Of a DNA stretch of 46,150 nt, positions 1,006-45,984 are shown piece by piece. The notes under the pieces were generated by a model that made no database searches, had not been told where the DNA came from, and worked only from the letters and a program-made list of their open reading frames with translations. The stretch lies in sequence record MT511058.1; one strand, given 5' to 3'. This stretch comes from Escherichia phage vB_EcoD_SU57. Positions within the stretch are counted from its first letter, which is position 1. Each line of letters starts with the position of its first letter. Position numbers and translations under genes: made by a program.

Positions 1006-1529
1006 TGTTTGATTTCAACGAAGACAAATTGACGGATGAACAGATTATGAGTATTGCAAAGCAGGATGGAATTCCACCGCTACGGATTGCAATCAATGCA
1101 AATGGGTATCGGCATGTTCAGCACCTCTGGGGCCAGCCTGATGCATCTGGAGTCTACATAGATGAAGAGCTGGGAGTTCTGATTAAGTTGATTAGGAAAA
1201 TGGCAAGGAACGGGAGGGGAGTGGTGGGTGTCAAGTCTGTACACGAGGGCGCTCGCAAGATTAAGCCGTTCGTAGGACGCTTTGATGTCATGCGCATAAT
1301 CAAGGATGAACTAATCCCAGCACTTGATAAGATGAATCTCACATGCCTCATTGGCGATAAGATTTATGTTCATCCGGCAATCATTGATGAGTACTGGCAG
1401 CCTAACTTCAAAACTTACGAAGGTGAACATGCTAGTAGACTACCATACCACTTGCGGTACAGCGAGGAAGAGGTTGAGGTGGCCATTGAGTTCTATAGGA
1501 AAGCTAAATCACTACTGAATGGTAAATAG
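1005..1529 (+). CDS. truncated paralog of the DUF3987-like protein at 42454-44037 (shares N-terminal about 40 aa and C-terminal about 85 aa, lacks the central P-loop domain)
   Basis: N-term MFDFNEDKL...LRIAINANGYR and C-term GVVG..ARK.KPF...TCLIGDK.Y match both ends of the 527 aa protein. Confidence 0.6.
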   Translation: MFDFNEDKLTDEQIMSIAKQDGIPPLRIAINANGYRHVQHLWGQPDASGVYIDEELGVLIKLIRKMARNGRGVVGVKSVHEGARKIKPFVGRFDVMRIIKDELIPALDKMNLTCLIGDKIYVHPAIIDEYWQPNFKTYEGEHASRLPYHLRYSEEEVEVAIEFYRKAKSLLNGK

Positions 1530-1569
1530 CACTTTTTGCCTAACGCGGTAATGCCATGGATGGCATAAT
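1526..1569 (+). promoter_or_regulatory. box variant ATAGCACTTTTTGCCTAAC plus CATAAT hexamer 22 nt after TTGCCT
   Basis: box overlaps stop codon of upstream gene; fixed 22 nt phasing. Confidence 0.5.
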
Positions 1570-1608
1570 AGCCTCATCGAAACGAGATACGTAAATTAGG
1601 GATTTAAA

Positions 1609-1827
1609 ATGAGCAAGACAATCACGCTGCAATGCCTTAAGACAAATAATCCAGAGTTCTTAAAAGGTCACAAATATGTAGCAACTCTGGTAGACGGTAA
1701 AACATGGGCAGTTAAGGGGGGATTCCAGGATTACAAATTCCCACTCGAGCACATTCCTGGTGGAAATCTTGGTTTTGTTAGTAGCTGCCGCTCGGTTAAG
1801 TTCGTGTTTGAAGTGGTAATGAAATAG
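1609..1827 (+). CDS. hypothetical protein (72 aa)
   Basis: ORF with RBS, between two box elements. Confidence 0.55.
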   Translation: MSKTITLQCLKTNNPEFLKGHKYVATLVDGKTWAVKGGFQDYKFPLEHIPGGNLGFVSSCRSVKFVFEVVMK

Positions 1828-1867
1828 CACGAATTGCTAAACAATGGATCGGGTAGTCGGCTACGAT
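1824..1867 (+). promoter_or_regulatory. box ATAGCACGAATTGCTAAAC plus TACGAT hexamer at 22 nt
   Basis: consensus box overlapping TAG stop of upstream gene. Confidence 0.5.
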
Positions 1868-1897
1868 TACCCCATCGACAACAACGAGGAAATGAAG

Positions 1898-2131
1898 ATG
1901 GAAAACAATTACGAAATGAAAACAGATCGCAAGCTCTTTAAAGACATGGAAGGCGACGACTGCTGGATTGACACGATGACAAATTTCGGAGATGTCACTG
2001 TCGAGATTGTAATTGACGATGACTCTGGAACCTTTCCCGTGCAAGATGCGGATACCGTACGCGCAATGGGTGAGCACTTAATCAAGATGGCTGACTACAT
2101 GGAGAGCCAGGGGAAATTATCTGTAAATTAA
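1898..2131 (+). CDS. hypothetical protein (77 aa); tandem paralog of 2170-2373
   Basis: start moved to second ATG (RBS GAGG spacing 8); same leader and first codons as next gene. Confidence 0.5.
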   Translation: MENNYEMKTDRKLFKDMEGDDCWIDTMTNFGDVTVEIVIDDDSGTFPVQDADTVRAMGEHLIKMADYMESQGKLSVN

Positions 2132-2169
2132 TCAAGATTCGCATTATCAATAACAACGAGGAAATGAAG

Positions 2170-2373
2170 ATGGAAAATATTCGTATTGAAGATGTTCACT
2201 TTGACCAAGCTGAGGTCGGAATCACAAAAAGCGTTCAAGGATACGTTGTTTATCTAGACTTCAATCCTGATGACTACGGGGACGGGCAGATGCTGATGCA
2301 CTACAGTCCTGATCAGGCGCGCAATCTGGCGGCGGCATTAATCCTGGCGGCGGACGAGATGGAGAAGCAATGA
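2170..2373 (+). CDS. hypothetical protein (67 aa); tandem paralog of 1898-2131
   Basis: identical leader AACAACGAGGAAATGAAGATGGAAAA; C-terminal A..L...AD.ME pattern shared. Confidence 0.5.
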   Translation: MENIRIEDVHFDQAEVGITKSVQGYVVYLDFNPDDYGDGQMLMHYSPDQARNLAAALILAADEMEKQ

Positions 2374-2633
2374 AACGTTTAATGACATGCATGACCATTA
2401 TTGCGGCAATGATTGTTCTTACTGGTTGCGAGAAGGCACCAGAGGTTCAGATTCAGTCAGGTGAATTCAATGTGGAGCGTCTATTCACAGTGGATGGATG
2501 TACCGCCTACAGATTCCGAGATAGCGATAGAGCCATCTACTACACAAATTGCCATGGCAGTACGCAGAGTGAGTACAGGTCCGGCAAGGTCATGAAGAAA
2601 GAAACAGTTCAGACAGATCGCACGAATTGGTAA
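2370..2633 (+). CDS. putative lipoprotein (87 aa)
   Basis: hydrophobic signal peptide followed by lipobox LTGC; 3 prime end lies inside a box variant. Confidence 0.6.
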   Translation: MKRLMTCMTIIAAMIVLTGCEKAPEVQIQSGEFNVERLFTVDGCTAYRFRDSDRAIYYTNCHGSTQSEYRSGKVMKKETVQTDRTNW

Positions 2634-2660
2634 AAGGGGATTCATCATGACTGGTATAAT
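2617..2660 (+). promoter_or_regulatory. box variant ATCGCACGAATTGGTAAAAG plus extended -10 TGGTATAAT at 22 nt
   Basis: box lies at the 3 prime end of the lipoprotein gene; TATAAT at 2655-2660. Confidence 0.5.
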
Positions 2661-2813
2661 CCCCAGCATCAACCACATGAATGGAAGTTAAGTGACGATA
2701 TACGAACATAAATTCAGTAGCAGGGGTATTGATATGCTACTGCACTATATAGACGAAAAATACGCAAAGCTCATGCTTAAGACGCATGGCGGCACAATAA
2801 CTAGGGTTGAGAT

Positions 2814-3074
2814 ATGAGTAAGTACGATCGTGAAATTATTGGAATTGATGGCACGGTAACAACAGTGGATGTTTATCGCGTACTTGATGCATTTGGTGTA
2901 TCTGACCCAGCCACGCAGCATGCGATAAAGAAGATGCTCTGCGCAGGCTTGCGTGGCCACAAGGATTACCTTACCGACCTCAATGACTCGATTGATTCGT
3001 TACAGAAAGCTAAGGAGCTTTACGGGCAGAAGATGATTCATGAATCGTCTAAATCAATTCGGGTTGTTAAATAG
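2814..3074 (+). CDS. hypothetical protein (86 aa)
   Basis: ORF; stop TAG inside next box. Confidence 0.55.
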   Translation: MSKYDREIIGIDGTVTTVDVYRVLDAFGVSDPATQHAIKKMLCAGLRGHKDYLTDLNDSIDSLQKAKELYGQKMIHESSKSIRVVK

Positions 3075-3114
3075 CACTAATTGCTAAGCCCGCTCCGGCT
3101 GGTTTTGTTATAGT
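3071..3114 (+). promoter_or_regulatory. box ATAGCACTAATTGCTAA plus TGTTATAGT at 22 nt
   Basis: fixed phasing, extended -10 like. Confidence 0.5.
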
Positions 3115-3539: not shown

Positions 3540-3679
3540 TTTACATCCATACGTACTACACTGGCAAGTTCAACAGCGTTAAGCATGTTCGAGTTCACGA
3601 TAGCTACGAGAGCGCAAAGGCCCAATGGTTGGTTCTTGGTGGTGATATTAATTCATATAGAGTAGCCGAGCGGCACTAA
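3536..3679 (+). CDS. small hypothetical protein (47 aa)
   Basis: ATGA start-stop overlap with upstream gene; stop TAA inside box at 3671. Confidence 0.3.
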   Translation: MIYIHTYYTGKFNSVKHVRVHDSYESAKAQWLVLGGDINSYRVAERH

Positions 3680-3713
3680 TTGCTAAAACAGTACCGGGGT
3701 AATTTGTTATAGT
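3671..3713 (+). promoter_or_regulatory. box variant CGGCACTAATTGCTAAAAC plus TGTTATAGT at 22 nt
   Basis: fixed phasing. Confidence 0.5.
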
Positions 3714-3744
3714 TACCCCATCTAAAAGAGATGAGGGATTACAG

Positions 3745-4414: not shown

Positions 4415-4553
4415 ATATGTTATCGCATGTGAACGACTGGTCTTTGATATGAAGACTTTTCACTGGTTCATAATTAAGGATTTAATAAAGCCTTACAAGA
4501 AAGGTGTGACACCTGAGGTATTTATCAAGAACTTCTATAGCAATAAAAGCTAA
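4401..4553 (+). CDS. small hypothetical protein (50 aa)
   Basis: ORF ending at TAA inside degenerate box. Confidence 0.25.
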   Translation: MSFTEYVIACERLVFDMKTFHWFIIKDLIKPYKKGVTPEVFIKNFYSNKS

Positions 4554-4580
4554 ACGCAGTCGCCACGGATGGCATATAAT
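4537..4580 (+). promoter_or_regulatory. degenerate box ATAGCAATAAAAGCTAAAC plus TATAAT at 22 nt
   Basis: fixed phasing; TATAAT at 4575-4580. Confidence 0.45.
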
Positions 4581-5503: not shown

Positions 5504-5581
5504 GCTCTGCTAGCTCAATTGGACAGAAGCAACGACCTTCTAAGTCGTAGGTTACTGGTTCGAATCCAGTGCGGAGCGCCA
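5504..5581 (+). tRNA. tRNA-Arg (anticodon UCU, reads AGA)
   Basis: hand-folded cloverleaf: 7 bp acceptor stem with one G-U pair, D-loop with GG, anticodon loop CTTCTAA, T-arm ACTGG/TTCGAAT/CCAGT, encoded CCA. Confidence 0.75.
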
Positions 5582-6411: not shown

Positions 6412-7983
6412 ATGAGTGACTTAATCGTATGGGATGAACTGACATACGCAGAAAAGATGGCTATCAAGGCCATCTCTGAGCATAGTTTCGAGGGGTTCTT
6501 GCGGTGTTTCTTCCAGATAACTCAGGGCGAGAGATTCAAAATGAATTGGCATGCTAAGTACCTTTGCCGCGTCATTGATGAGATTCTTGAGGGTAAGAGA
6601 AAGGATACCATCATAAACGTAGCTCCTGGATCAGCCAAAACCGAACTGTTTAGCATCCACTTCCCTGTATATAGCATGATTAAGATTAAGAAGGTCAGGA
6701 ATCTTAGTTTGTCATTCTCTGACTCATTGGTTAAGCGCAACTCCAAGCGCGTCCGTGACCTGATTAAGTCAAAGGAGTTCCAGGAGCTTTGGCCTTGCAC
6801 CTTTGGAACGTGCAGGGATGACGAGATTCAGGTGCTGGATGAGAGTGGCAAAGTTAGGTTTGAGTCTATATCTAAGGCGATGGCAGGACAGGTGACTGGA
6901 AGCAGGGGCGGCTACATGACTGACGATTATAGTGGTTGCATAATGCTGGATGACCCACTAAAGCCTGATGACGCGTTAAGTAATGTAAGAAGAGAGGCTG
7001 TCAATATGCTTCTCAAGAACACAATTCGTTCACGTCGAGCTAGCTCAGTAAATGGAAAGGAAACGCCAATACTTTCCGTGCAGCAAAGACTTCATGTTCT
7101 GGACACTAGCCACTTCATGGAGTCAGGGCAAATGGGCATAAAGTTCGACGTAGTGAAAGTTCCAGCCATAGTCACAGAGGATTACGCCGACACGCTTCCT
7201 GATTGGATCAAACAACAATTTATTGATGATGTTCTTTCATCACCATTTGTAGAGCGGGATGGAGTTAAGTATTACAGCTACTTTCCGGCAAAGGAGTCAA
7301 TAGAAGACCTGATGGCTATGTGGGATGCTGACCCGTACACGTTCCTTAGTCAGTACCAGCAGGAACCTGTAGCTCTGGGCGGCAATCTTATTAATGTTGA
7401 TTGGTTCCAGCATCTTAGTGATACGTTCAGACCTCCAGCTAAGTACGACTATCGATTCATCACATGCGATACCGCAATGACCACTAAAAGTTACAGCGAC
7501 TTCTCTGTTCTTCAGTTGTGGGGCTATAAAGATGCTAAGATTTACCTTATTGATCAGCGCAGGGGTAAATGGGAGGCCCCAGAGTTGGAGGCTGAACTGC
7601 TGGACTTCGAGAAGAAATCAAGGGCAACCAGTCAGTCAGATGGTATCCTCAGAAAGATTATTATCGAGAAGAAAGCGTCTGGTATCGGCCTGATTCAATC
7701 AGCTGGCAGGGTTATGCGAACACCGATAGAGCCATACGTACCGGATAATGACAAGCTAACCAGGGTGATGAGTGCACTACCACAGATTAAGGCTGGTAAC
7801 GTAGTTCTTCCAGAGTCATCGCCGTGGCTAAACGGTTTGCTCACTGAGGTTGCGGCTTTTACGGCAGATGACTCGCATAAGCACGACGACCAAATTGACT
7901 GTCTAACAATGGCGGCAAACCTTGTACTTAACATCGCGGATGATCCTAAGGCGAGACTGATGCGCATAGCGGGAATGAAATAG
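6412..7983 (+). CDS. terL: terminase large subunit
   Basis: P-loop like VAPGSAKT, Walker B IMLDDP, C-terminal nuclease-type acidic residues; 523 aa. Confidence 0.85.
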   Translation: MSDLIVWDELTYAEKMAIKAISEHSFEGFLRCFFQITQGERFKMNWHAKYLCRVIDEILEGKRKDTIINVAPGSAKTELFSIHFPVYSMIKIKKVRNLSLSFSDSLVKRNSKRVRDLIKSKEFQELWPCTFGTCRDDEIQVLDESGKVRFESISKAMAGQVTGSRGGYMTDDYSGCIMLDDPLKPDDALSNVRREAVNMLLKNTIRSRRASSVNGKETPILSVQQRLHVLDTSHFMESGQMGIKFDVVKVPAIVTEDYADTLPDWIKQQFIDDVLSSPFVERDGVKYYSYFPAKESIEDLMAMWDADPYTFLSQYQQEPVALGGNLINVDWFQHLSDTFRPPAKYDYRFITCDTAMTTKSYSDFSVLQLWGYKDAKIYLIDQRRGKWEAPELEAELLDFEKKSRATSQSDGILRKIIIEKKASGIGLIQSAGRVMRTPIEPYVPDNDKLTRVMSALPQIKAGNVVLPESSPWLNGLLTEVAAFTADDSHKHDDQIDCLTMAANLVLNIADDPKARLMRIAGMK

Positions 7984-8023
7984 CACAAATTGCTAAACAC
8001 TAAAGCTACGGATGGCGTATAGT
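7980..8023 (+). promoter_or_regulatory. box ATAGCACAAATTGCTAAAC plus TATAGT at 22 nt
   Basis: box overlaps terL stop; leader GTATAGTTACTTCACACAAACGAGAGGAG identical to copy at 20020. Confidence 0.55.
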
Positions 8024-8052: not shown

Positions 8053-8385
8053 ATGAAGGCAGTATTTAAAGGTTATAAAAAAGCTGGTCGTTTGGAATTT
8101 ACTATTGGTAAGATTTATGAGTTATCAGAAACACGCGGAGTGGGTGGATATATGGGGGTGACTGATGACAGTGGCTTTCGGGCAATATTTATCCCAGACA
8201 ACATCTATGATTTCGAGGTGTTGATCCCAGATGAATTTATCGGTAAAGAAAAGCAATTCAAATACTACATCAATGGTGAAGCTGTTTCTAAAGTCAAGTT
8301 CGATGATACGCTGTTATGCGTCAAGGAATTTAAATCTGATGGCATTGATACATCATCAATCAAGTTCGAAGTAAAATTCGAGTAA
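8053..8385 (+). CDS. hypothetical accessory protein (110 aa), paralog of 20054-20407
   Basis: shared FKGYKK N-terminus, KY.NG..V.K..FDD.LL and FEV.FE C-terminus; own box promoter and terminator. Confidence 0.6.
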   Translation: MKAVFKGYKKAGRLEFTIGKIYELSETRGVGGYMGVTDDSGFRAIFIPDNIYDFEVLIPDEFIGKEKQFKYYINGEAVSKVKFDDTLLCVKEFKSDGIDTSSIKFEVKFE

Positions 8386-8406
8386 CCACAAAAGCTATGA
8401 TAAACT

Positions 8407-29623: not shown

Positions 29624-29624
29624 A

Positions 29625-31958: not shown

Positions 31959-31981
31959 TGTGTAGAGTCTCCATTTGTAAA

Positions 31982-32045: not shown

Positions 32046-32969
32046 TTAGTCTAGCAATTCGCTTGCCTTGTATATTCGCTTTCTTATGCCTGACTTGAAA
32101 AAATTATCATCATTTGGCACTACCACATCAAGATCGCGATCGTCAGCAACGGCGAGTAAATCAAAAGCGTGGCGAGTGCAAGCGATGCGTAACTTGTATT
32201 TTCTAAGCGAGTAAGCAACCATTTCCATGTTGTAGCTGGAGTAGCAAACAAGCACGCAGCGGTTGCCAGTAGCAAGATGAACGCGAACACCATCAATCCA
32301 ATTATCGACAAGATAAGCGTACTCATCATTTTTAAAGGTGCCAATAACAGCAACAGACTGGCGAGTATAATCTTTTGCAGCATAACTAACATCTCCCTCC
32401 TCATTGATAAACATTACATTGCACATCTCTTCTGATATTCCGTCACTATAAGCCATAAAGCACGGAACGGCGTGGATTAATTCACCTGATTTCGTCCTGC
32501 CAACATCAAAACCGAACTCGCTATAGATACCCTCGTATGTACTGAGAGGAGTTGATTCTACTCTTTCCGTCCTTTCCATTATCTCTAAGCATCTTTCGTG
32601 GTCAATCTGAGCGCCCATTTTGTATAGCTTGGTTCTTGATGCTTGCTTGTTTGCCTTATTAACAACTTCTACTGGAATAAGGTTTAGCCACTCACCGAGA
32701 ACGTCGATACATTCACTGAATGACTCTCCTCGCATCTTCTGTAACCACAAAATTCCATCGCCTGAGCCGCACTGGTTGCAGATAATTCCACCATCACCTT
32801 CCTCGCTAACCTTGTTGGTCCACCTAGCCCTGTCGTTGCCACCGCAATAAATGCATGGTTGATGCTTCTTAGTCTGGAAGAACTTTGGGTCAGCGCCGCA
32901 GATGTTGATAAGCGCCTTATCCCACAAGCCGCGCATTCTTGGTAAAACCTCTTTCTTATCGTAGTGCAT
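32046..32969 (-). CDS. DNA primase (putative; Zn-ribbon CxxC..CxxC plus Toprim-like region)
   Basis: CIYCGGNDRARW...CNQCGSG zinc-binding motif; position next to helicase. Confidence 0.5.
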   Translation of the reverse strand: MHYDKKEVLPRMRGLWDKALINICGADPKFFQTKKHQPCIYCGGNDRARWTNKVSEEGDGGIICNQCGSGDGILWLQKMRGESFSECIDVLGEWLNLIPVEVVNKANKQASRTKLYKMGAQIDHERCLEIMERTERVESTPLSTYEGIYSEFGFDVGRTKSGELIHAVPCFMAYSDGISEEMCNVMFINEEGDVSYAAKDYTRQSVAVIGTFKNDEYAYLVDNWIDGVRVHLATGNRCVLVCYSSYNMEMVAYSLRKYKLRIACTRHAFDLLAVADDRDLDVVVPNDDNFFKSGIRKRIYKASELLD

Positions 32970-33026
32970 ATCAATCTATCTCTTAACAAATAAAAAGGAT
33001 GTACCGATTATGGCACATCCAATTCT

Positions 33027-33500
33027 TTACTCTTTAGCTTTTCGTGCTGCTTCGTTAGCGGCCTTAATCTTGCGCCATGATCGACACTCTGGCTTGGTGG
33101 CTAATTCAGCCTCAGTTACCACACGCAGCATGTGACGCTTTTTGCAACGCAGCGTAAGAGGCTTGCCATTACCGTCGAATTGCAGATCTGGTCGGCAGAA
33201 TGTTGCGCGAAAACCTTCTCCAGTTCGTTTGTAGTAGTTGTGCGAAAGCTGAGCACCACGTGCAGAAATCATACCACGATTAAACCATTCTTCTACAGTC
33301 TGGGGCGTTACCTTTAACTGCTTTGCGATATTCGCCTTTGTACCGAAGAAATCAAGGACAATCTCCAGCCGTGCGCGTAATCCAGCCCTTACTTCATCCT
33401 TTAAAACGTAGTAGCCTGAAGGTCGTTTACGTTGTTTTTTGTCTTTAGTGCGGATGGTTCCATTGTTCCCGTTGATTGTTCTCTTGTCGACTGTATTCAT
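33027..33500 (-). CDS. HTH DNA-binding protein (putative transcription regulator), basic
   Basis: helix-turn-helix-like segment IAKQLKVTPQTVEEWFNRG; Lys/Arg-rich termini. Confidence 0.5.
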   Translation of the reverse strand: MNTVDKRTINGNNGTIRTKDKKQRKRPSGYYVLKDEVRAGLRARLEIVLDFFGTKANIAKQLKVTPQTVEEWFNRGMISARGAQLSHNYYKRTGEGFRATFCRPDLQFDGNGKPLTLRCKKRHMLRVVTEAELATKPECRSWRKIKAANEAARKAKE

Positions 33501-33511
33501 TTAATTACCTC

Positions 33512-33556
33512 AATAGCATTTTTTGTTAAAAGTCATTCCGATTTGATGGTAGTATT
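33512..33556 (+). promoter_or_regulatory. box variant AATAGCATTTTTTGTTAAAAG upstream of helicase gene (weak hexamer)
   Basis: same variant as the reverse copy at 42428; divergent region with regulator gene. Confidence 0.4.
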
Positions 33557-33601
33557 GTACTCAATTAAACGCTACAAGACAATTTTTATAGGAATTTAGA
33601 T

Positions 33602-35596
33602 ATGTTGCCTATCGAGAAGCTGGTTGCCAACTTCGATAAAGAAAGAATTAAACAGATTCAAAAATATTATCAGTTTGGAGAGATAACCCCTTACGAGTTC
33701 CAGTGCGTTACATTTGATGCAATTGGAAAGGCCATTGGAAAGTACGAGGCTCCATTTATCGCGGACCTTTCCGTGTCTGCGGGTAAGACAATCATTCTGG
33801 CTATGATTGGTAAGCGCATGGAGCAGCTTGGGCTTCCTTACATGGTTCTTTCTCGCCAGTCAGAAATTATCAGCCAGAACTCGGAGGAACTTCGCAATTT
33901 CGGCATCCGTAACAGCGTCTATTGCGCTGGCCTTAACGTTAAATCAGTTTACTACCCAACCATAGTTGCCAGTGAGGGTACGGCAGCTAACGGCTTATTT
34001 AAGGGTCTTGGTGACTATGTTCCGGCAGTTATCGCTATCGATGAATGTCACATGCTTGATGCTATGGATATCGTTGAAGCCGAGGAGAACGAAGAAACAT
34101 TTGAGCAAATGAGCACAAAGAAAGGTGAGATGGTATTTAAGGATGGTGTTAATACCGGGTTGCTTGGCACTGGTCGCGCGCAGTACACGCTAATCATTAC
34201 CGAGATGAAACGTCGTTGTCGTGAGAAGTACGGGCGAGAGCTTCGTATATTCGGTCTTACTGGCAGCCCATATCGCAACAACGACCACATAGTCGTTAGT
34301 AATCCTAATATCCGTGGTTTCTGGCGCAAAACAATTATTCAGGTACCGACCAATTACCTGGTTGATTTGGGGTTCGTTGTACCAACAGTTTACGGTGAAG
34401 TTGGTGATTTGGGCTATGACCTTGCTGAGTTTACGCCAGATGGCTCTGACGGGATTAAAGACTTCACGAAGAAAGACTTAAACGCAATGGAGGAGAAGAT
34501 TCACCAAAACCAATCTATGACACAAAAGATTATGCAATTTGCAGCCAAGTTCATGGAGACAAGGAACGCGGCACTTGTTACCTGTTCTGGTAAGCGTCAT
34601 TGCGAGGAAGCAGCAGCAGCGCTTCCTGAGGGTGTGACCTGGGCTATAGTAACTGACTCTACAGGTGAGAAAAAGCGCCGTGAGATTCTAGCCGATGCAT
34701 ATGAGGGTAAGTATAAATTCATATTTCAGATCGGCTGCCTCACAACCGGCGTGAACGTCCCACCCTGGGATACATCAATCATTCTGCGTAAAGTTGGTAG
34801 TATCACTCTTCTTATTCAGCTTTTGGGGCGAGGCATGCGAATTCTTAAGAAGAAGCATAAAGAAATGGGAATGATTAAGGAAGATCACGTGGTACTAGAC
34901 TTCGCTGGCACCCTTGATGATATGGCGGAATTGTACTTTGACCCAATCATAGAGGAGGTGCAGGACCAGAAGTTTAAATCATCCCGCAAAGGCGGCGATG
35001 AGCCGAGGGTTTGTCCAGCATGCAGCTATGAGAACTCTCCGTTCGCCCGTCGATGCAATAACGTAATTAATGGGAAGCGTTGCGAGCATTTTTTTACATT
35101 TCGCTTGTGTGAAGATATAGAGGACCCGCAGACAAAAGTTATTATTAAGAAAGGTTGTAGTGAGAAGAATGATATTGCTGCTAAAAACTGTCGATGCTGC
35201 GGCGAGATGCTAATAGACCCGAACGCAAAGCTATCTGGGAAAATGTATCGTAAAGGCGACTGGTTGCGAGTCTATGACTTTAAGATTGGATTAACAAAGA
35301 ATCAAACAGGGATTGTTGCCTCATACGAGGTCATGGCTCATAGTGGAGATAGGTTCCGAGCCTATGAGTCGTTTTTCCCAGAGTCAGACCATCGCGTTTG
35401 CTCTGTAAAATGGAAAGCATTTTGCTCGGCTCACATAGAGAACAGGACTGAGGCTTTTAGAATTGGCAGGTTGCGTAATGCTAAGATGATTATGACTAAT
35501 GCTCACCTTTTCCGTGCGCCATTAAGGATTACACACCGTAAGAACCAGAAGTCTCAAGATATTATCGCAAACAAATCTTTTACTATGGAGGATTGA
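33602..35596 (+). CDS. superfamily 2 helicase with C-terminal Cys-rich zinc-finger region
   Basis: Walker A SAGKT, DECH box, QLLGRGMR motif VI, multiple CxxC pairs. Confidence 0.8.
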   Translation: MLPIEKLVANFDKERIKQIQKYYQFGEITPYEFQCVTFDAIGKAIGKYEAPFIADLSVSAGKTIILAMIGKRMEQLGLPYMVLSRQSEIISQNSEELRNFGIRNSVYCAGLNVKSVYYPTIVASEGTAANGLFKGLGDYVPAVIAIDECHMLDAMDIVEAEENEETFEQMSTKKGEMVFKDGVNTGLLGTGRAQYTLIITEMKRRCREKYGRELRIFGLTGSPYRNNDHIVVSNPNIRGFWRKTIIQVPTNYLVDLGFVVPTVYGEVGDLGYDLAEFTPDGSDGIKDFTKKDLNAMEEKIHQNQSMTQKIMQFAAKFMETRNAALVTCSGKRHCEEAAAALPEGVTWAIVTDSTGEKKRREILADAYEGKYKFIFQIGCLTTGVNVPPWDTSIILRKVGSITLLIQLLGRGMRILKKKHKEMGMIKEDHVVLDFAGTLDDMAELYFDPIIEEVQDQKFKSSRKGGDEPRVCPACSYENSPFARRCNNVINGKRCEHFFTFRLCEDIEDPQTKVIIKKGCSEKNDIAAKNCRCCGEMLIDPNAKLSGKMYRKGDWLRVYDFKIGLTKNQTGIVASYEVMAHSGDRFRAYESFFPESDHRVCSVKWKAFCSAHIENRTEAFRIGRLRNAKMIMTNAHLFRAPLRITHRKNQKSQDIIANKSFTMED

Positions 35597-35597
35597 T

Positions 35598-36017
35598 ATG
35601 AATATTACAGATAAGGTCGATTACATTGAATTTTACCCTGGCCCGGTTAAGTCATGCCCTAAGGAGGATGACGAACAAATCTTTTGCTCTGATTGGGTTA
35701 AGTATAACTACCCAGATATGGTATTTTTCCATTGCGTGAATGAGGGAAAGAAAACCATTGGTCAAGCAAGAAAAGACCAGGCTAAGGGGCTTCTAAAAGG
35801 CGTATCAGACTGTATGTTTCTTATTCCTGAATCACTTCGAGGTAAGTATCCTTTCGGGGCTATAGAGCTAAAGAGGGCTGGCAAAACTCAAGCAAGTCCA
35901 GTCAGCGAAGAACAGAAAGCATTTCTGAAAAGTGTAGTGGAATCAGGCGGTTTCTCGGCAGTCGCCTACGGACGTGAGGGTTTTCTTGCAGCATTCAAAG
36001 AAATGATTTCAAAATAG
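35598..36017 (+). CDS. VRR-NUC domain nuclease
   Basis: D...ELK PD-(D/E)xK-like core in about 140 aa protein directly after helicase. Confidence 0.65.
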   Translation: MNITDKVDYIEFYPGPVKSCPKEDDEQIFCSDWVKYNYPDMVFFHCVNEGKKTIGQARKDQAKGLLKGVSDCMFLIPESLRGKYPFGAIELKRAGKTQASPVSEEQKAFLKSVVESGGFSAVAYGREGFLAAFKEMISK

Positions 36018-36057
36018 CACGAATTGCTAAAGACGATTTTAAAATATGGGGTATAGT
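36014..36057 (+). promoter_or_regulatory. box ATAGCACGAATTGCTAAAG plus TATAGT at 22 nt
   Basis: perfect consensus; overlaps VRR-NUC stop. Confidence 0.55.
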
Positions 36058-36093
36058 TACTACATCGAAACGAAACACAAAGAGAGAAATAAA

Positions 36094-36288
36094 ATGGCTA
36101 CTATCTACACTGGAAAATTCTACGAATCACGCAAAACTGGTTATAAATACCAACTTGTTATCACTGAAGATGGTTATGTACTTGATGATGAAGAGGGTTA
36201 CGCATTAGAGGTTAGCCCAACATACAAAGATGATTTAGAGACAGTTAAAAATATATTTGGCGAAAAATTTGATGAGGTATCAGAATGA
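36094..36288 (+). CDS. hypothetical protein (64 aa)
   Basis: ATG 36094 after conserved CATCGAAACGAAAC leader; track start lies in promoter. Confidence 0.5.
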   Translation: MATIYTGKFYESRKTGYKYQLVITEDGYVLDDEEGYALEVSPTYKDDLETVKNIFGEKFDEVSE

Positions 36289-36443
36289 GAGAGGCAATCG
36301 TAAACTTTAAAACCGGAGAGGATTCAAAATTCTTCTTCAATACATTCTCACAATACATTGACAAGTTTGTTTTCGTAATTGATGGTGGATGCGAGGTTGT
36401 TGTTCCTATTAAGCTAATTGATGGGTTGGGAGTATCAGAATAA
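36285..36443 (+). CDS. small hypothetical protein (52 aa)
   Basis: start-stop overlap with neighbours; below track cutoff. Confidence 0.3.
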   Translation: MREAIVNFKTGEDSKFFFNTFSQYIDKFVFVIDGGCEVVVPIKLIDGLGVSE

Positions 36444-36664
36444 TGGCAACCTTTACATTTGAGCACCAATGGGAAGTATTTAAGTTAATGACGTTGCAGG
36501 AATTGCTTAAGGCTGGTTATAAAAAGCATGCTCCATCACTAGCTGAATGCCTGGATATGAGCTTTGAAGAAGACTATCTGAACACCAATATCGAAACATG
36601 GCGAGACCGAATGGTTGCTGATATCGAAGAAATGAAAAAAGATTGCCCGGAGGATTTCTTATGA
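36443..36664 (+). CDS. hypothetical protein (73 aa)
   Basis: ORF, TAATG overlap. Confidence 0.45.
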   Translation: MATFTFEHQWEVFKLMTLQELLKAGYKKHAPSLAECLDMSFEEDYLNTNIETWRDRMVADIEEMKKDCPEDFL

Positions 36665-36858
36665 TTAACGAAAGGCCTTTTGTTGTTACATTTAAGCCAA
36701 GAAACAAACCCAGAATGGAGATTGACGAATACTTACTAAAATACGGAAATAGCTATTTTGTTCTTGAGATCTCAGCCTACTCGGATAGGTATATTGTTCG
36801 CAACGATGCTGGTATGGTTGTTAGTGTTTCAAAATTGGATGTTGAGATTGTGAGATGA
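36661..36858 (+). CDS. hypothetical protein (65 aa)
   Basis: ATGA overlap with upstream gene. Confidence 0.45.
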   Translation: MINERPFVVTFKPRNKPRMEIDEYLLKYGNSYFVLEISAYSDRYIVRNDAGMVVSVSKLDVEIVR

Positions 36859-37046
36859 TTACTGCGACTTGCGTGCGTGCAAACGGCTCGTTTACTTTAT
36901 TTGAGGATTACGAATTCAACTTTCATTCAGATGAGGTAACAGTATTGAGCGATGATGGGTGCTATTGGTTCGTTAGTTATCAAGGTGATGGTTATTACGG
37001 TTGCAGAGACGCGGAAGGAAAAGAAGTTAGTTTCTTAGTCGAGTAG
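36855..37046 (+). CDS. hypothetical protein (63 aa)
   Basis: ORF ending at TAG inside box. Confidence 0.45.
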   Translation: MITATCVRANGSFTLFEDYEFNFHSDEVTVLSDDGCYWFVSYQGDGYYGCRDAEGKEVSFLVE

Positions 37047-37086
37047 CACTTTTTGTTAAAGCTCAAATCCAGGGATGGATTATATT
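37043..37086 (+). promoter_or_regulatory. box variant GTAGCACTTTTTGTTAAAG plus TATATT at 22 nt
   Basis: fixed phasing. Confidence 0.5.
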
Positions 37087-37116
37087 AAACACATCAACAA
37101 CACAGAGGGTTAAGAG

Positions 37117-37242
37117 ATGAAAATTGCAGACAAAGAGATGTTCGAAATTGCACAGACTTATGCAAATGACGCAGTTAAAAACGGTTCAGAATGGTCATGG
37201 ATGTGCGCAAAAGAATACCTAAAAATGGCTTACGGATTATGA
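37117..37242 (+). CDS. small hypothetical protein (41 aa)
   Basis: ATG after AGAGGG RBS downstream of box promoter. Confidence 0.3.
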   Translation: MKIADKEMFEIAQTYANDAVKNGSEWSWMCAKEYLKMAYGL

Positions 37243-37487
37243 TAGTAGAAACAGGACGAGCAGCCGTATGGGCGCATTGTGGTGAAGCTGGATTGCAAGA
37301 TGACATTAAGCAGATATCTAGATTCTTTGATATAAAAGATATCAGCGTCGTGTTCAATGGCAAATTCTCTTACATGGATGAGCGCCCAAGAAAATACGTA
37401 AGAGTTAAGCCAGGCGTCAGGATTGATGTTAACGAGTTCCTTAAATCTGAGGGATTCAAGTTTAAGATAACGAAGCCTAAGGATTGA
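37239..37487 (+). CDS. hypothetical protein (82 aa)
   Basis: ATGA overlap with upstream small ORF. Confidence 0.4.
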   Translation: MIVETGRAAVWAHCGEAGLQDDIKQISRFFDIKDISVVFNGKFSYMDERPRKYVRVKPGVRIDVNEFLKSEGFKFKITKPKD

Positions 37488-37489
37488 GT

Positions 37490-37741
37490 ATGTTTGGTTT
37501 AGATTTTCAGCCAGAGCATTACGATTTAGTATATGGTCAAAGTGGTGCAAAGTTTAGAGCGATACCTATTGCTGATTGGTTCCCTCCTGATTATGTGGAT
37601 GTGAACGCAAAAACTAAAGACGGGAAGTGGGTTCAGATTTACTACTCCCCAGCATGCGGAAACCTTTGTATGACTGACCTTGATCAGAAATTAGCAATTA
37701 GTGCGGAAGTTATCGACTACTGGTTGAAAGAAGTTGAATGA
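37490..37741 (+). CDS. hypothetical protein (83 aa)
   Basis: ATG 37490 after GGATTGAG. Confidence 0.45.
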   Translation: MFGLDFQPEHYDLVYGQSGAKFRAIPIADWFPPDYVDVNAKTKDGKWVQIYYSPACGNLCMTDLDQKLAISAEVIDYWLKEVE

Positions 37742-37824
37742 AGAGCCTGATACTAGTAGCATTAGTCCAACTATTTAGCTTTACTATCTTATATTTTATC
37801 GTAATGAATTAAGGAACTTATATA

Positions 37825-38955
37825 ATGGCAACTGCAAAAATCACTAACGAACAATTGCGCGAAGAACTGGCTAATGGCATGACCAACAAGGCAATAGCAG
37901 AGAAGTATGGAATGAACATTCGCAACGTTGAATTGCGTCGCAGTAAGCTGGCAAAATCAGGCGAGCTTCATGGAAACCCTGGTATCAAGAAGTTAGTCCC
38001 TGACGGTTATATGGTCAAAGGAACTTCAACGATGATTGACGCGGCGGGTAATGAAAAGCTTCGCTGGGTTAAAACCTCTGTAGATAATGAGCGCCTTGAG
38101 GTTTTAATGGAGCAAGCTAGAGAGGCATTTTGTTCTGAGTTGCCAAAAGCAGATGCGGTCAGCCACTCAGGCAACGAAGTTAACTCTGAATTAATGACTC
38201 TTTACCCTATTTTCGATATCCATATCGGCATGATGGCGCATCGCCATGAATCTGGTGAGAATTATGACACTAACACGGCAGAGAAATTAATGGAATCATA
38301 TTTCGACCATGCAATTTCTGTATCACCTGCGTCAGAGAAAGCCGTTGTTTTAGTTGGCGGCGACTTCCTTCACTCTGACGGATTGGAAGCTGTAACCCCA
38401 GCGAGCGGACACTGCCTTGATCAGGATAGCCGGTATGCTAAGTTAGTTTATGTTGCGATTCGATCGATTCGTGCCGCGGTAGAGAAGATGCTTAAGAAGC
38501 ATAAGAATGTCGAGATTCAGATTATAGAGGGAAATCATGACCAAAGCGGCATGATCTGGCTTCGCGCTGCAATGGCTGCATTTTATGAAAACGAGAATCG
38601 CGTGTTTGTTGATACCAGTCCAGCAATCATGCACAAGACGCGATTTGGCTCAACATTACTTGGTTACACGCATGGTCACACAATGAAGAAAGCCGAGGGT
38701 CGACTCGCAGCAATGGCGACCGACTACCGCAAAGACTTTGGTGAGTGTGAGTTTGTTTACTGCCACTCCGGGCATTTTCACCATGCAACTGTTACAGAGT
38801 GCACACTTGGTATTGACGAGGTTCACCCAGCACTGGCCAGTAAGGACGCATATGCCGCACGTGGAGGTTGGCGCTCATACCGTCAAGCGGCTGCGATAGT
38901 TTACCACAAGAATTTTGGCGAGGTTGGTCGCCATATTTACCGCCCAGGCATGTAA
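37825..38955 (+). CDS. metallophosphoesterase (calcineurin-like) with N-terminal HTH domain
   Basis: D.H, GGDFLH, GNHD, GHTH metal-binding motifs; N-terminal HTH-like segment. Confidence 0.65.
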   Translation: MATAKITNEQLREELANGMTNKAIAEKYGMNIRNVELRRSKLAKSGELHGNPGIKKLVPDGYMVKGTSTMIDAAGNEKLRWVKTSVDNERLEVLMEQAREAFCSELPKADAVSHSGNEVNSELMTLYPIFDIHIGMMAHRHESGENYDTNTAEKLMESYFDHAISVSPASEKAVVLVGGDFLHSDGLEAVTPASGHCLDQDSRYAKLVYVAIRSIRAAVEKMLKKHKNVEIQIIEGNHDQSGMIWLRAAMAAFYENENRVFVDTSPAIMHKTRFGSTLLGYTHGHTMKKAEGRLAAMATDYRKDFGECEFVYCHSGHFHHATVTECTLGIDEVHPALASKDAYAARGGWRSYRQAAAIVYHKNFGEVGRHIYRPGM

Positions 38956-38999
38956 ATAGCACATTTTGTTAATAAAGCCTCAAAGGATTGAGGCAAAAT
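38956..38999 (+). promoter_or_regulatory. box variant ATAGCACATTTTGTTAATAAAG (weak hexamer)
   Basis: box overlaps stop codon region. Confidence 0.35.
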
Positions 39000-39029
39000 G
39001 AATAAACGATAACGAGATGAGGAGTTATA

Positions 39030-39503
39030 ATGATTTACGTATTTGATATTGACGGAACTATAGCTAATAATGAGCATAGAAATCACCTTTTACCATCCAG
39101 TGACCTTCACTTGACTTCAAGTTGGAAGTATTACAATAAAGCCTGTTCTGGAGACTCACCAATAATCCCAATGATAAACATGATGAACAAACTTGCGGAA
39201 TTATGTCCTGTTTACATAATGACATCCAGAAGTGATGAAGTTGAATGGAGAACCCTTGAGTGGCTTCAGGATAATGAGGTTGAGTATGATTCTATATACA
39301 TGAGAAGTCGATATGACAACCGAAAAGATTACAAAATAAAAGAGGAATGGCTTAATGAAATCAGTGGTGGCGATAAAGGAAGTGTGGTTATTTTTGAAGA
39401 TAACCCACAAGTAATTAAGCACCTAAGAAGTTGCGGATACACCGTTATGGCTGTATGTGAATATGAAGAACTACCTAAAGATTGCGAATCTCACGGAGAA
39501 TGA
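39030..39503 (+). CDS. HAD-superfamily phosphatase (polynucleotide 3-prime-phosphatase-like)
   Basis: N-terminal DIDGT motif. Confidence 0.55.
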   Translation: MIYVFDIDGTIANNEHRNHLLPSSDLHLTSSWKYYNKACSGDSPIIPMINMMNKLAELCPVYIMTSRSDEVEWRTLEWLQDNEVEYDSIYMRSRYDNRKDYKIKEEWLNEISGGDKGSVVIFEDNPQVIKHLRSCGYTVMAVCEYEELPKDCESHGE

Positions 39504-39505
39504 AA

Positions 39506-40060
39506 ATGACTAAATTATTTATCCTTAATGGCCCCGCTGGAGTTGGAAAGGACACTATAGCGGATATCATGGTTGAGACTGGTGTAGCCAAAGAAAAGGT
39601 ATCATTCAAGTCACCAATGTTTAACGTTGCAAAAGGAATGCTATCAAGCGATGAATTTGATGGATTCATCAAGAATTACGACAATAGAGACTATAAGGAA
39701 TCGCCTCATGGATTTCTTGGCGGTATGACAGTTCGTGAATTTATGATTTGGATTAGCGAGTCTGTAATGAAGCCAGTCTTTGGTGATGATATTTTCGGTA
39801 AAAGGCTAGCCAAGTCACTTGGTGATGGTTGCTACATTTGCGCTGATGGTGGATTTGCTAGCGAGATTAAGCCACTGATCGACGCTGGTGTTGAGGTCAC
39901 GTTAATCAGATTGCATAGGGCAGGGTACACATTTGATGGCGATAGTCGCTCATACATTCACGGGGTGTGCGCAAGAGAAATTGATGTTCGTGTTGTTGAT
40001 TGTGATATTGATGGAACATCAGCATTGGTAAGGCACGTAATAAATAGCACGAATTGCTAA
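39506..40060 (+). CDS. P-loop kinase (nucleotide or polynucleotide kinase-like)
   Basis: Walker A GPAGVGKDT; start at ATG 39506 after GGAG; C-terminus NSTNC encoded by box. Confidence 0.55.
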   Translation: MTKLFILNGPAGVGKDTIADIMVETGVAKEKVSFKSPMFNVAKGMLSSDEFDGFIKNYDNRDYKESPHGFLGGMTVREFMIWISESVMKPVFGDDIFGKRLAKSLGDGCYICADGGFASEIKPLIDAGVEVTLIRLHRAGYTFDGDSRSYIHGVCAREIDVRVVDCDIDGTSALVRHVINSTNC

Positions 40061-40087
40061 AGATAATAATAAAAACTGAGTTATCAT
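40044..40087 (+). promoter_or_regulatory. box ATAGCACGAATTGCTAAAG plus TATCAT at 22 nt
   Basis: perfect consensus, embedded in kinase gene 3 prime end. Confidence 0.5.
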
Positions 40088-41855: not shown

Positions 41856-42386
41856 CTACCTCCCGTGATTATCATGGTAAGAAAGCGAGATCTCAGCAGA
41901 TTTTCTTGCGCATGCTGCATCAAAAATATTATCGTAATAACCAAGACTGGTAGTTTTCCCATTGACCCCTATCTGCGAAAAGTATTTTCCACTCTTATTT
42001 ATTGTTACGCCAGATATTCCAGTCTTATTCCTCTTATTCATTGATAGGTTCTTCTGGTTGCATTGCCTTGACACCAGCCTTAGATTTTCAACTCTGTTGT
42101 CATTTCTTATGTGATTAATGTGATCAACTTGCATTCCTTCCGGTATACTTCCATTAATCATCTCCCATATAACCCTATGAGCCATATATCTTTCCCCATA
42201 TATACCAAGAAGTATATAACCACAACCTTTATCATCAAGGCATCCAGCTACCTTGCCAGCGTATTGGGTGTTGCACTTATTCATTGTTCTAACCTGAGAG
42301 AAGTGACTTAAAGGCCTTATTTTCCATATCAGTTTTCCATTTTTGTAATAAAAATATTCATGCCAGTTCATTTCCGCTAACTCCAT
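41856..42386 (-). CDS. HNH homing endonuclease with AP2-like DNA-binding domain
   Basis: HNH motif VDHINHIRNDNRVENLR followed by AP2-like ISGV...GYY..AA.AR; start ambiguous (42386 or 42371). Confidence 0.8.
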   Translation of the reverse strand: MELAEMNWHEYFYYKNGKLIWKIRPLSHFSQVRTMNKCNTQYAGKVAGCLDDKGCGYILLGIYGERYMAHRVIWEMINGSIPEGMQVDHINHIRNDNRVENLRLVSRQCNQKNLSMNKRNKTGISGVTINKSGKYFSQIGVNGKTTSLGYYDNIFDAACARKSAEISLSYHDNHGR

Positions 42387-42400: not shown

Positions 42401-42448
42401 CAAACAATAACAAAAGCCCACTAGGGGCTTTTAACAAAAAATGCTATT
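42401..42448 (-). promoter_or_regulatory. box variant (ATAGCATTTTTTGTTAAAAG, reverse) fused to a hairpin terminator, between DUF3987-like and HNH genes
   Basis: box directly after stop at 42454; stem AGCCC/GGGCT follows; no clear -10. Confidence 0.4.
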
Positions 42449-44067: not shown

Positions 44068-44112
44068 ATTATATCAACGACCTCTTATAATTCATTATCA
44101 ATTTGTGCTATT
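44068..44112 (-). promoter_or_regulatory. box variant (ATAGCACAAATTGATAA, reverse) plus TATAAT at 22 nt
   Basis: fixed phasing upstream of DUF3987-like gene. Confidence 0.5.
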
Positions 44113-44813: not shown

Positions 44814-44876
44814 TTTGTTTGCCTCTGTCTGTTTCGTTTCTATATAAAGAAAATGCCGCATCCTTGCGACTCTGCT

Positions 44877-45068
44877 TTAACATAAAATGTTATTTTCTAC
44901 AATAAGATCAAACTCCTCAATCTGATAATAATCAGGACCATAACCATTATCTATATCGATACCTAAGAGTCTATTCTTTTCAAGTTCAGCTAGTTCCTCT
45001 GTATCAAAAACACCACAAATTTCAAAGCCGTCATAGTTAGTGTAAGCATTAAGTATGTAAACTTTCAT
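44877..45068 (-). CDS. hypothetical acidic protein (63 aa)
   Basis: ORF with TGGAGAT RBS downstream of box promoter. Confidence 0.5.
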   Translation of the reverse strand: MKVYILNAYTNYDGFEICGVFDTEELAELEKNRLLGIDIDNGYGPDYYQIEEFDLIVENNILC

Positions 45069-45094
45069 TTTCTATCTCCAGTTTCGATGAAGTA

Positions 45095-45139
45095 ACTATA
45101 CAACAAAAGCCCCGATTGGCTTTAGCAATTCGTGCTATT
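45095..45139 (-). promoter_or_regulatory. box (reverse, AATAGCACGAATTGCTAAAG) plus TATAGT at 22 nt
   Basis: perfect consensus, fixed phasing. Confidence 0.55.
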
Positions 45140-45286
45140 GCGCGCCTTTTCTATCGCCTTAAGCATAATCTCGTGACTTTCGAGCAAGTCCTCTCGAAAC
45201 CAGTCACCGCAAGGCCAGCCCTTTCCGCTGTATGAGCTGATGACCTCAAGATCGAAATAATTTATCTCAGATGGCAGGAGCATCAT
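45122..45286 (-). CDS. small hypothetical protein (54 aa) ending NSTNC
   Basis: GAGGTGAA RBS; C-terminal five residues encoded by the box. Confidence 0.3.
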   Translation of the reverse strand: MMLLPSEINYFDLEVISSYSGKGWPCGDWFREDLLESHEIMLKAIEKARNSTNC

Positions 45287-45522
45287 TTCACCTCATCAAA
45301 AGTTGCAATCCCAGGAATAAACATCCCAACCTTCCATCCAGCGATAGCAATCCATCCAGAATCGTGCTTGTGCGGTCGCTCAGCGCCATTAATCACCCAT
45401 TCGTTCGGGATTGTCTTACCGTTAATGATTAGCGGCTCAGAGTCGTATACAGAGCCTTTTACGAATGGCGTTAATACTTTCTTGTCGGTGCTTGTAATGC
45501 AATTGGTGCAGCGAATTTTCAT
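45283..45522 (-). CDS. hypothetical protein (79 aa), tandem paralog of 45524-45724
   Basis: shared IA..G......IPG..TF pattern. Confidence 0.5.
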   Translation of the reverse strand: MKIRCTNCITSTDKKVLTPFVKGSVYDSEPLIINGKTIPNEWVINGAERPHKHDSGWIAIAGWKVGMFIPGIATFDEVK

Positions 45523-45523
45523 A

Positions 45524-45724
45524 CTAATCCCTCACTGCCTGAAAAGTTAAACCACCTGGAATTGCTGCTACGATAAGTCCGTCATGAGCAATAAAACAGA
45601 ATACAGGAACGTAATTATCACTCACTACCGCGCGATTATATTCATCGTAATAATACTCATTGCCCTTAGTAAACTTCCACGTCCCATTATCGAAATTATT
45701 AAGGCACTTAACTTTAACTTTCAT
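45524..45724 (-). CDS. hypothetical protein (66 aa), tandem paralog of 45283-45522
   Basis: ORF with GAGGATTGAG RBS. Confidence 0.5.
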   Translation of the reverse strand: MKVKVKCLNNFDNGTWKFTKGNEYYYDEYNRAVVSDNYVPVFCFIAHDGLIVAAIPGGLTFQAVRD

Positions 45725-45734
45725 ATCTCAATCC

Positions 45735-45911
45735 TCAAAATGGAATGCAGTGATTACAACCTTCACCATTGCAACAGAAATCTTCATCTTCTGACTGGAA
45801 TTGCTTAGCCAAATCAATGTCTAACTTTCCGCGCAACACAAGTTCAGTGTAATCTTCGTTCAGCCCAATCAGTGCGCATTCGTGGCGTAATTCATCTTTG
45901 TCAATCTTCAT
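45735..45911 (-). CDS. small Cys-rich protein (58 aa, CCNGEGCNHC)
   Basis: ORF after GAGGGTATAG RBS downstream of box promoter; below track cutoff. Confidence 0.35.
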   Translation of the reverse strand: MKIDKDELRHECALIGLNEDYTELVLRGKLDIDLAKQFQSEDEDFCCNGEGCNHCIPF

Positions 45912-45938
45912 ATCTATACCCTCGCTGTTGATGAGTTA

Positions 45939-45984
45939 ACTATATCCTCACCAGATAGATATGTCTTTAGCAAAAAGTGCTATT
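45939..45984 (-). promoter_or_regulatory. box variant (AATAGCACTTTTTGCTAAAG, reverse) plus TATAGT at 23 nt
   Basis: outermost promoter of the reverse-strand block. Confidence 0.5.

Follow-up and report, generated by a model that had tools for sequence, protein, structure and literature searches.

In enterobacteria, the class II promoters of the activators MarA, SoxS and Rob carry the activator's binding site, the marbox, in forward orientation and overlapping the -35 position; these sites cluster near -41, and the promoters lack a -35 hexamer (PMC12052159, PMC8811837, PMC10268841). For the marbox itself, Kettles et al. (PMC6900184) give GCAHWWWWTGYYAAA, and Sharma et al. (PMC5684230) define the consensus as gcactaattgctaaa. 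Here, we compare with such promoters a recurrent box element of Escherichia phage vB_EcoD_SU57 (MT511058.1). The whole sequence analysed, 46,150 nucleotides (nt) counted from its first letter and referred to as the window, is the complete or near-complete genome of an Rtp-like siphophage of the T1 family (Drexlerviridae, Braunvirinae). Its box promoters resemble the class II promoters of MarA/SoxS/Rob(RamA), e.g. those of micF, fumC, ybjC-nfsA, lpxC P2 and lpxL P1, with respect to the 15-nt core, its orientation, its distance of 20 ± 1 nt to a sigma-70-type -10 hexamer and the lack of a -35 hexamer. They differ in number and in detail: the host sites are degenerate, single and scattered over 4.6 Mb, whereas the 46 kb of the phage hold about 20 copies close to the optimum, with the addition of a conserved ATA prefix, a shared leader and often a nested terminator hairpin. 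Moreover, dependence on a host protein is, for the phage units, only predicted.

Among phages, the middle promoters of T4 (MotA/AsiA) have no -35 hexamer and possess a TGCT-containing box 5' of a normal -10 hexamer; the MotA box has its centre at -30 and is separated from the -10 by about 12 nt. The promoters described here are likewise a phage class without a -35 hexamer and with a TGCT-containing box upstream of a normal -10. Unlike the MotA promoters, they have a spacing of 22 nt, and no phage-encoded reader is evident, no search having been aimed at MotA/AsiA homologues. The repeat itself is not new, because the Rtp genome paper of Wietzorrek et al. from 2006 is said, in its abstract, to have described 10 conserved inverted repeats 5' of genes and to have proposed Rtp52 as a regulator, without a link to the marbox. 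The present element is almost certainly identical with these inverted repeats, 18 phased copies being present in Rtp. Later genome papers on T1-like phages limited their search to TTGACA-N15-17-TATAAT and listed 5-10 promoters per genome, and the control of host RNA polymerase in the T1 family has never been worked out. In the literature, we found no paper tying the repeats of T1 or the Drexlerviridae to the marbox, MarA, SoxS or Rob. Thus, the repeat is known; the identity with the host marbox, the class II geometry and the family-wide distribution appear to be new.

The box element and its relation to the marbox

Each unit consists of the box ATAGCAC-N4-TTGCTAAA and a subsequent -10-like hexamer; the window contains 20 co-oriented copies and one reversed copy. 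A sequence-only reading of the window had listed 19 copies at gene boundaries and the reversed one at 31982, and all of these are present, at most 1 nt from where they had been placed. The fixed 22-nt spacing between TTGCTA and the hexamer, which this reading had called exact, is real, but its counts of 14 copies at 22 nt and two at 23 nt have to be revised: of the 20 co-oriented copies, 17 have 22 nt, two (26551 and 45966) have 23 nt and one (33516) has 21 nt. Its further descriptions agree with our results. All copies except that at 31982 are co-oriented with the downstream gene, the virion operon is free of boxes with the exceptions of 7980 and 19982, a semi-conserved leader (ATCGAAACGAGAGGA) often follows downstream, and the units are promoter-like, with a spacing between TTGCTA and hexamer that exceeds the -35/-10 range of sigma-70. 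The partial palindrome TAGCA-N5-TGCTA lies inside the box, and its centre near -42 corresponds to the position of a class II activator.

The element occurs far beyond chance. For the 19-mer ATAGCACGAATTGCTAAAG, 13 matches with at most three mismatches were found in the window versus none in 100 dinucleotide shuffles; a looser mismatch limit retrieved all copies of the earlier list and an extra one on the minus strand (33032-33050). Combining a box matrix with a phased -10 gave 18 sites in the window, compared to 0.40 on average and never more than 3 in 200 shuffles. Canonical promoters of the type TTGACA-N16-18-TATAAT are not enriched in the window (23, 32 and 16 found versus 31.5, 40.1 and 13.1 expected).

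On the following comparisons, the core GCAC-N4-TTGCTAAA is a marbox, i.e. the site of the AraC-family proteins MarA, SoxS and Rob, and of RamA in Klebsiella and Salmonella. The exact 15-mer consensus marbox gcactaattgctaaa is found at 3673-3687; the commonest phage form, GCACGAATTGCTAAA, deviates from it only once, at a degenerate position; and the core GCACAAATTGCTAAA at 7983 is identical to the top-scoring site in a table of Salmonella chromatin immunoprecipitation sequencing (ChIP-seq) sites. A marbox matrix was trained solely on 87 published Salmonella ChIP-seq sites for MarA, SoxS and Rob as well as RamA. On this matrix, the phage boxes score 12-18 bits, the training sites having a median of 11.2 and a maximum of 17.8, and 11 sites of the window reach at least 15 bits versus 0.28 in 200 dinucleotide shuffles. 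The per-position conservation of 65 phage promoters and that of the ChIP sites are correlated (r = 0.68). The arms TAGCA/TGCTA are symmetric over 5 base pairs (bp), but conservation is asymmetric: G4 is invariant (2.0 bits), its mirror position C14 reaches 0.6 bits, and the conserved C7, T11, A17 and A18 are unsymmetric. A weak C14 and a strong AAA outside the palindrome are common to phage boxes and marbox, and the partial palindrome is a property of the marbox consensus itself.

The geometry was assessed for 77 box promoters of four phages. Here, the distance between TTGCTA and the hexamer is 22 nt in 65, 23 nt in seven and 21 nt in five promoters, which corresponds to gaps between core and hexamer of 20, 21 and 19 nt, respectively. 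In E. coli micF, the marbox GCACTGAATGTCAAA is followed after exactly 20 nt by TAGAAT, beyond which the start of the RNA is annotated at a distance of 8 nt; orientation and gap are as in the phage, and all 20 promoter copies of the window have, as micF does, GCAC upstream and AAA downstream. For ybjC, GCATTAATTGCTAAA is separated by 21 nt from TACAGT, and the gap between marbox and -10 of fumC fits at 18-20 nt. Two further class II references, inaA and nfo, were dropped, as the fetched stretches contained no good matrix site. No recognisable -35 hexamer was found in the 77 phage promoters when TTGACA was sought with spacers of 16-18 nt; the best match averaged 2.9 of 6 positions and never exceeded 4. 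TTGCTA as the real -35 was ruled out, as it is 22 nt away from the hexamer, and there is no better hexamer at 16-18 nt. In contrast to the missing -35, the -10 is TATAGT, TATAAT or TATATT in 41 of the 77 promoters, a TG precedes it in 30, and an A is placed 7 nt past the hexamer in 62. A short A/C-rich leader with a ribosome-binding site follows the predicted start.

Phased sites are shared by related phages, with 18 in Rtp, 19 in ACG-M12, 18 in T1, 16 in Klebsiella phage TSK1 and 11 in phage Vc1; the controls T7, lambda and the outgroup Dhillonvirus HK578 have 0, 1 and 0. The consensus ATAGCAC-N4-TTGCTAAA is identical in six phages of six genera. A BLAST search with one 68-nt unit hit 1172 phage records, mostly of 44-52 kb and from phages of Klebsiella, Escherichia, Salmonella and Shigella. 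At least 120 stretches in IMG/VR carry the pattern with its exact gap of 20 nt (22 nt from TTGCTA), the matches listed all being in contigs of 21-53 kb; a pattern one base shorter is present in 17.

The factor acting at the box

We consider it on balance probable that the units are sigma-70 class II promoters which depend on host MarA, SoxS or Rob. The decisive point is that coincidence is a very improbable reason for a motif to reach the maximum of an independent marbox matrix while also having the orientation and distance of class II. In addition, Rob, MarA and SoxS, if present, would occupy consensus marboxes, so that a phage harmed by them would hardly have retained 20 of these. The term phage-specific regulon, under which the sequence-only reading had placed the boxes, is not supported: their core is the one published as the consensus marbox for MarA, SoxS and Rob, and orientation and distance are those of micF. 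According to the mechanism we propose, a monomer of a host AraC-family activator would sit on the box at about -49 to -30. Candidates are the constitutive Rob and, when induced, MarA, SoxS or, in Klebsiella and Salmonella, RamA. The activator would substitute for the -35 contact and, as happens in micF complexes, bring in host RNA polymerase via sigma region 4 and the alpha C-terminal domain. Approximately 20 units would be switched on in this way, which serve small early, replication, recombination and lysis genes as well as inserted cassettes. At the single reversed box, the same factor would act as a repressor of the late lateral tail-fibre gene, and a Cro-like phage protein would probably modulate the circuit instead of reading the box.

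A wider proposal is plausible rather than probable: that the Drexlerviridae as a family have delegated promoter recognition for early, replication and lysis genes to MarA/SoxS/Rob/RamA, tying expression to the antibiotic, bile-salt and oxidative-stress state of the host, and that the early-to-late switch and the role of the Cro-like protein are part of this arrangement. The switch could be set by the reversed tail-fibre box together with replicating genomes that titrate a limited host factor, and the Cro-like protein, with its invariant disordered N-terminus and variable helix-turn-helix (HTH), could act on the host factor or the polymerase and not on the box. If the box promoters are class II marbox promoters, a phage family that is widely discussed for therapy against E. 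coli and Klebsiella would depend on the regulators behind clinical multidrug resistance. Mutations in marR, soxR or ramR, salicylate, bile salts and some antibiotics could then alter phage productivity, about 20 natural near-optimal class II marbox promoters would be at hand as tools, and there would be a clear case of a lytic phage with a host stress activator as its main promoter-specificity factor.

Several points weigh against a dependence on host activators. The evidence throughout is inference from sequence. T1 grows fast in plain broth, and the mutations known from classical T1-resistant strains affect fhuA and tonB rather than rob, marA or soxS; consequently, none of the activators can be essential by itself, so that redundancy or basal activity has to be postulated. 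The conservation of the box exceeds what a marbox needs, as the ATA prefix and the TT at positions 11-12 indicate. Both the box-promoter class and the family of the Cro-like regulator are limited to T1-like phages, and the canonical promoter of the regulator gene, which interlocks with a box promoter, is reminiscent of an immediate-early activator circuit, an arrangement which would also suit autoregulation. A dimer centred at -42 is, by analogy, the geometry of lambda cI at PRM as well. The box-bearing phage Vc1 was recorded on Vibrio cholerae, a host label that looks doubtful. Finally, class II activation is modest, 2- to 4-fold for RamA and MarA, and Rob is largely sequestered without inducers, MarA and SoxS requiring induction (both points from among PMC12052159, PMC8811837 and PMC10268841).

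The most serious competitor, which we regard as unlikely, is that a phage protein of the Cro/cI type (33027-33500, minus strand) reads the box and that the likeness to the marbox is due to convergence or deliberate mimicry. The protein would be made first, from a canonical sigma-70 promoter, and as a dimer on TAGCA-N5-TGCTA near -42 it would activate the approximately 20 box promoters as middle promoters by contacting sigma region 4, in the manner of lambda cI at PRM. Autorepression would result from the box in the gene's leader together with competition with the helicase promoter, and binding to the reversed box would repress the tail-fibre gene. The protein is the homologue of Rtp52 and T1 gp23 (53% identity to the latter; phrog_2856), and its role relative to the box is uncertain. 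Its gene is the only one here with an identified conserved -35/-10 promoter (33554-33582, minus strand; TTGTCT-17 nt-TACAAT), whose -10 overlaps that of the helicase box promoter on the other strand, the box itself lying in the regulator's own leader (whole arrangement within 33501-33601). The interlocked pair is kept in five of six phages, with equivalents in Rtp, ACG-M12, T1 and TSK1, whereas Vc1 has no clear -35/-10; the overlapping -10 hexamers look like a mutually exclusive switch. As with lambda PRM (cI at OR2), there is a site near -42 over the -35 position, an encoded protein of Cro/cI fold and a pair of divergent interlocked promoters at the regulator gene. The symmetric 5-bp arms of the box would accommodate such a dimer, and HK578 lacks the regulator family as well as the box-promoter class, both of these being confined to T1-like phages.

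Several features of the protein itself bear on this reading. The sequence-only reading had named it as one candidate for reading the box. It does possess a single HTH of the Cro/cI type, as seen in a structure model with a predicted local distance difference test score (pLDDT) of 86, in which the N-terminus is disordered and the C-terminal part is without a match. When 24 members of the family, which is confined to T1-like phages, are aligned, the putative recognition helix is the least conserved region (variants QTVEEWF, QTVQGWK, AVVSEWC, VRLTNAYR in Vc1, and QVVQQWR). Helix and box do not co-vary, as the box consensus is identical in six phages, and this variability argues against the HTH as the reader of a constant box. 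The arms of the box are symmetric but its conservation is not, in view of the invariant G4, the weak C14 and the unsymmetric C7, T11, A17 and A18, and lambda PRM differs in all these respects and in having one target promoter instead of about 20. The improbability of a chance match to the marbox matrix applies to convergence, too, and host Rob, MarA and SoxS would compete for consensus sites anyway. The family-invariant N-terminal segment DKRxxNGNNGTxRxxDKKxRKR (residues 1-30; 33411-33500, minus strand) is predicted to be disordered. An invariant disordered N-terminus hints at a conserved partner, a host protein or a nucleic acid, rather than at a sequence-specific contact of the HTH. The second candidate that had been named, the protein encoded at 37825-38955, is an SbcD-like DNA repair exonuclease (phrog_704, E-value 5e-152). 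An AraC-type protein of the phage was not detected by tblastn with MarA, SoxS and the Rob N-terminus (used as a screen only; best E-value 2), nor did a Pfam scan of 10 open reading frames (ORFs) show an AraC-type HTH.

It is quite improbable that the promoters work without any activator, the box being an UP-like or anchoring element for the polymerase or for a polymerase modified by a small phage protein. The near-consensus -10 hexamers, accompanied by TG at -15/-14 in the 30 promoters mentioned above, and the good growth of T1 in unstressed cells would agree with this, but 47 of the 77 promoters have no TG, and TTGCTA, 22 nt from the -10, is beyond the reach of sigma region 4. Furthermore, UP elements are A/T tracts and not GCAC...TGCTAAA, and such an element cannot explain a near-invariant 18-nt motif across genera with a rigid 20-nt phasing. 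That the box is mainly non-transcriptional, marking a boundary for recombination and cassette exchange or acting in RNA as a processing or terminator element at gene ends, is most improbable: copies flank mobile-looking cassettes (the HNH endonuclease gene and two paralogous inserts), hairpins and terminators are nested in units and the stop codon of the preceding gene often adjoins the box, but against it stand the strict orientation, the exact -10 phasing, the leader and its ribosome-binding site, and the fact that the box is identical to a known protein-binding site, a secondary use in recombination still being possible.

The reversed box and the spacer hairpins

The reversed copy is a perfect box on the plus strand (31982-32000), opposite to the neighbouring genes. 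Read along the strand that codes for the lateral tail-fibre protein, the terminator of the primase gene comes first and is followed by the extended -10 TGCTACAAT (32012-32004), the reversed box, which covers the predicted start, then a ribosome-binding site and finally the ATG at 31958. The arrangement is conserved in Rtp, ACG-M12 and T1. As the reversed box overlaps the predicted tail-fibre start, it is likely an operator or repressing site, and a factor binding there is predicted to repress this late gene. The GTG at 31988, given as start of the gene in the list of ORFs, is probably wrong, because the ATG at 31958 agrees with the annotation of ACG-M12.

The 36 nt between box and predicted start fold more stably than random genomic 36-mers (mean -8.2 versus -4.4 kcal/mol, p = 2e-12), and values of -8 kcal/mol or below are reached by 49% versus 10%. 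Hairpins are found around most -10 hexamers. Many of those in the spacer serve the upstream unit as terminators and have a T-tail that is at the same time the -10 (42433-42411, 45123-45106 and 38977-38994), and in the T1 record several such hairpins are annotated as terminators. The -10 of the primase promoter is located within the loop of the regulator gene's terminator hairpin (33020-32997). Other hairpins (e.g. 3682-3719 and 28405-28441) enclose the -10 without a T-tail; their stems differ, being GGGGTA/TACCCC, AAGGCC/GGCCTT or GGGGAAT/ATTCCCC.

Box promoters along the genome

In the following, box promoters are listed by the stretch from box to -10, and all starts are predicted. Six promoters of the plus strand precede the virion genes. 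At 1526-1569, the degenerate box ATAGCACTTTTTGCCTAA stands 20 nt ahead of CATAAT and serves the ORF 1609-1827 (+1 at 1576). The same gap is found at 1824-1867 (ATAGCACGAATTGCTAAA, TACGAT, 17 bits; +1 at 1874), at 2617-2660 (ATCGCACGAATTGGTAAA with the extended -10 TGgTATAAT; +1 at 2667) and at 3071-3114 (ATAGCACTAATTGCTAAG, TATAGT; +1 at 3121), where the spacer contains a hairpin and then a T-run. The promoter 3670-3713, whose core GCACTAATTGCTAAA is the published consensus marbox, scores 17.9 bits and has TATAGT after 20 nt (+1 at 3720). The last one ahead of the tRNA gene and the terminase/virion operon lies at 4537-4580 (ATAGCAATAAAAGCTAAA, 20 nt, TATAAT; +1 at 4587).

The two boxes within the virion operon serve paralogous inserts, both assigned to phrog_14592 ('virion structural protein'): the promoter 7980-8023 (+1 at 8030), which contains the core at 7983 mentioned above, belongs to the cassette 8053-8385, and 19982-20025 (+1 at 20032) belongs to 20054-20407, both on the plus strand. 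The inserts share the near-identical leader TACTTCACACAAACGAGAGGAG. On the minus strand, the promoter 26524-26568 combines a 21-nt gap with TATTAT (+1 at 26517) and serves the lipoprotein and DUF6453 genes (26483-25276). It is followed on the plus strand by 28389-28432 (ATAGCACTAATCGATAAA, 20 nt, TATGAT; +1 at 28439), which serves the genes of the Erf recombinase and SSB.

The primase box promoter (33007-33050, minus strand; -10 CATAAT, 14.4 bits; +1 at 33000) is the copy that was absent from the earlier list; its box is part of the final codons of the regulator gene. The helicase box promoter (33513-33555, plus strand; ATAGCATTTTTTGTTAAA, 19 nt, TAGTAT; +1 at 33562) has its box in the 5' untranslated region of the divergent regulator gene. 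Further plus-strand promoters are a perfect box with TATAGT after 20 nt at 36014-36057 (+1 at 36064), GTAGCACTTTTTGTTAAA with TATATT after 20 nt at 37043-37086 (+1 at 37093), a weak promoter at 38956-38999 with ATAGCACATTTTGTTAAT, a spacer hairpin and CAAAAT (+1 at 39006), which serves the PNKP-phosphatase and deoxynucleoside-monophosphate-kinase genes, and a perfect box with TATCAT after 20 nt upstream of the lysis cassette at 40044-40087 (+1 at 40094).

The remaining promoters are on the minus strand. That of the HNH endonuclease gene (42404-42447; +1 at 42397) has the terminator hairpin 42433-42411 in its spacer, with the T-tail running into the -10 TATTGT. The gene itself (41856-42386, minus strand) combines HNH_3 with a weak AP2-like tail and, having its own box promoter, looks like a mobile cassette. 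The DUF3987 gene (44037-42454) is served by 44068-44111 (ATAGCACAAATTGATAAT, 20 nt, TATAAT; +1 at 44061). A perfect box with a spacer hairpin and TATAGT is located at 45095-45138 (+1 at 45088), and 45939-45983, with a 21-nt gap and TATAGT (+1 at 45932), is the first of the leftward small-gene cluster.

With respect to other phages, T1 contains at 8365-8396 a good box, ATAGCACTAAATGTTAAA, directly 5' of the ATG of the small terminase gene and without a phased -10. Vc1 was set aside as uninformative as a non-enterobacterial test case, though it has the same boxes, its host label being doubtful. The T1-like phages PP134917 (Pseudomonas phage PsgS01F), MG065688 (Campylobacter phage A110b), OR786094 (Streptococcus phage MBBL140) and Vc1 have box matches and host labels that look doubtful; some of them are near-identical or close to E. 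coli phages, and full box promoters were confirmed for Vc1 only. A megablast search with 28000-40000 of the window returned RobRod40, JeanPiccard, Rtp, ACG-M12 and others at 84-88% identity, and the gene order agrees with the annotated records of ACG-M12 and Rtp. An Rfam scan for a known RNA family in leader or box gave a tRNA as the sole match. A tRNA-Arg gene with anticodon TCT (5504-5581) is situated directly 5' of the small terminase gene, as it is in ACG-M12.

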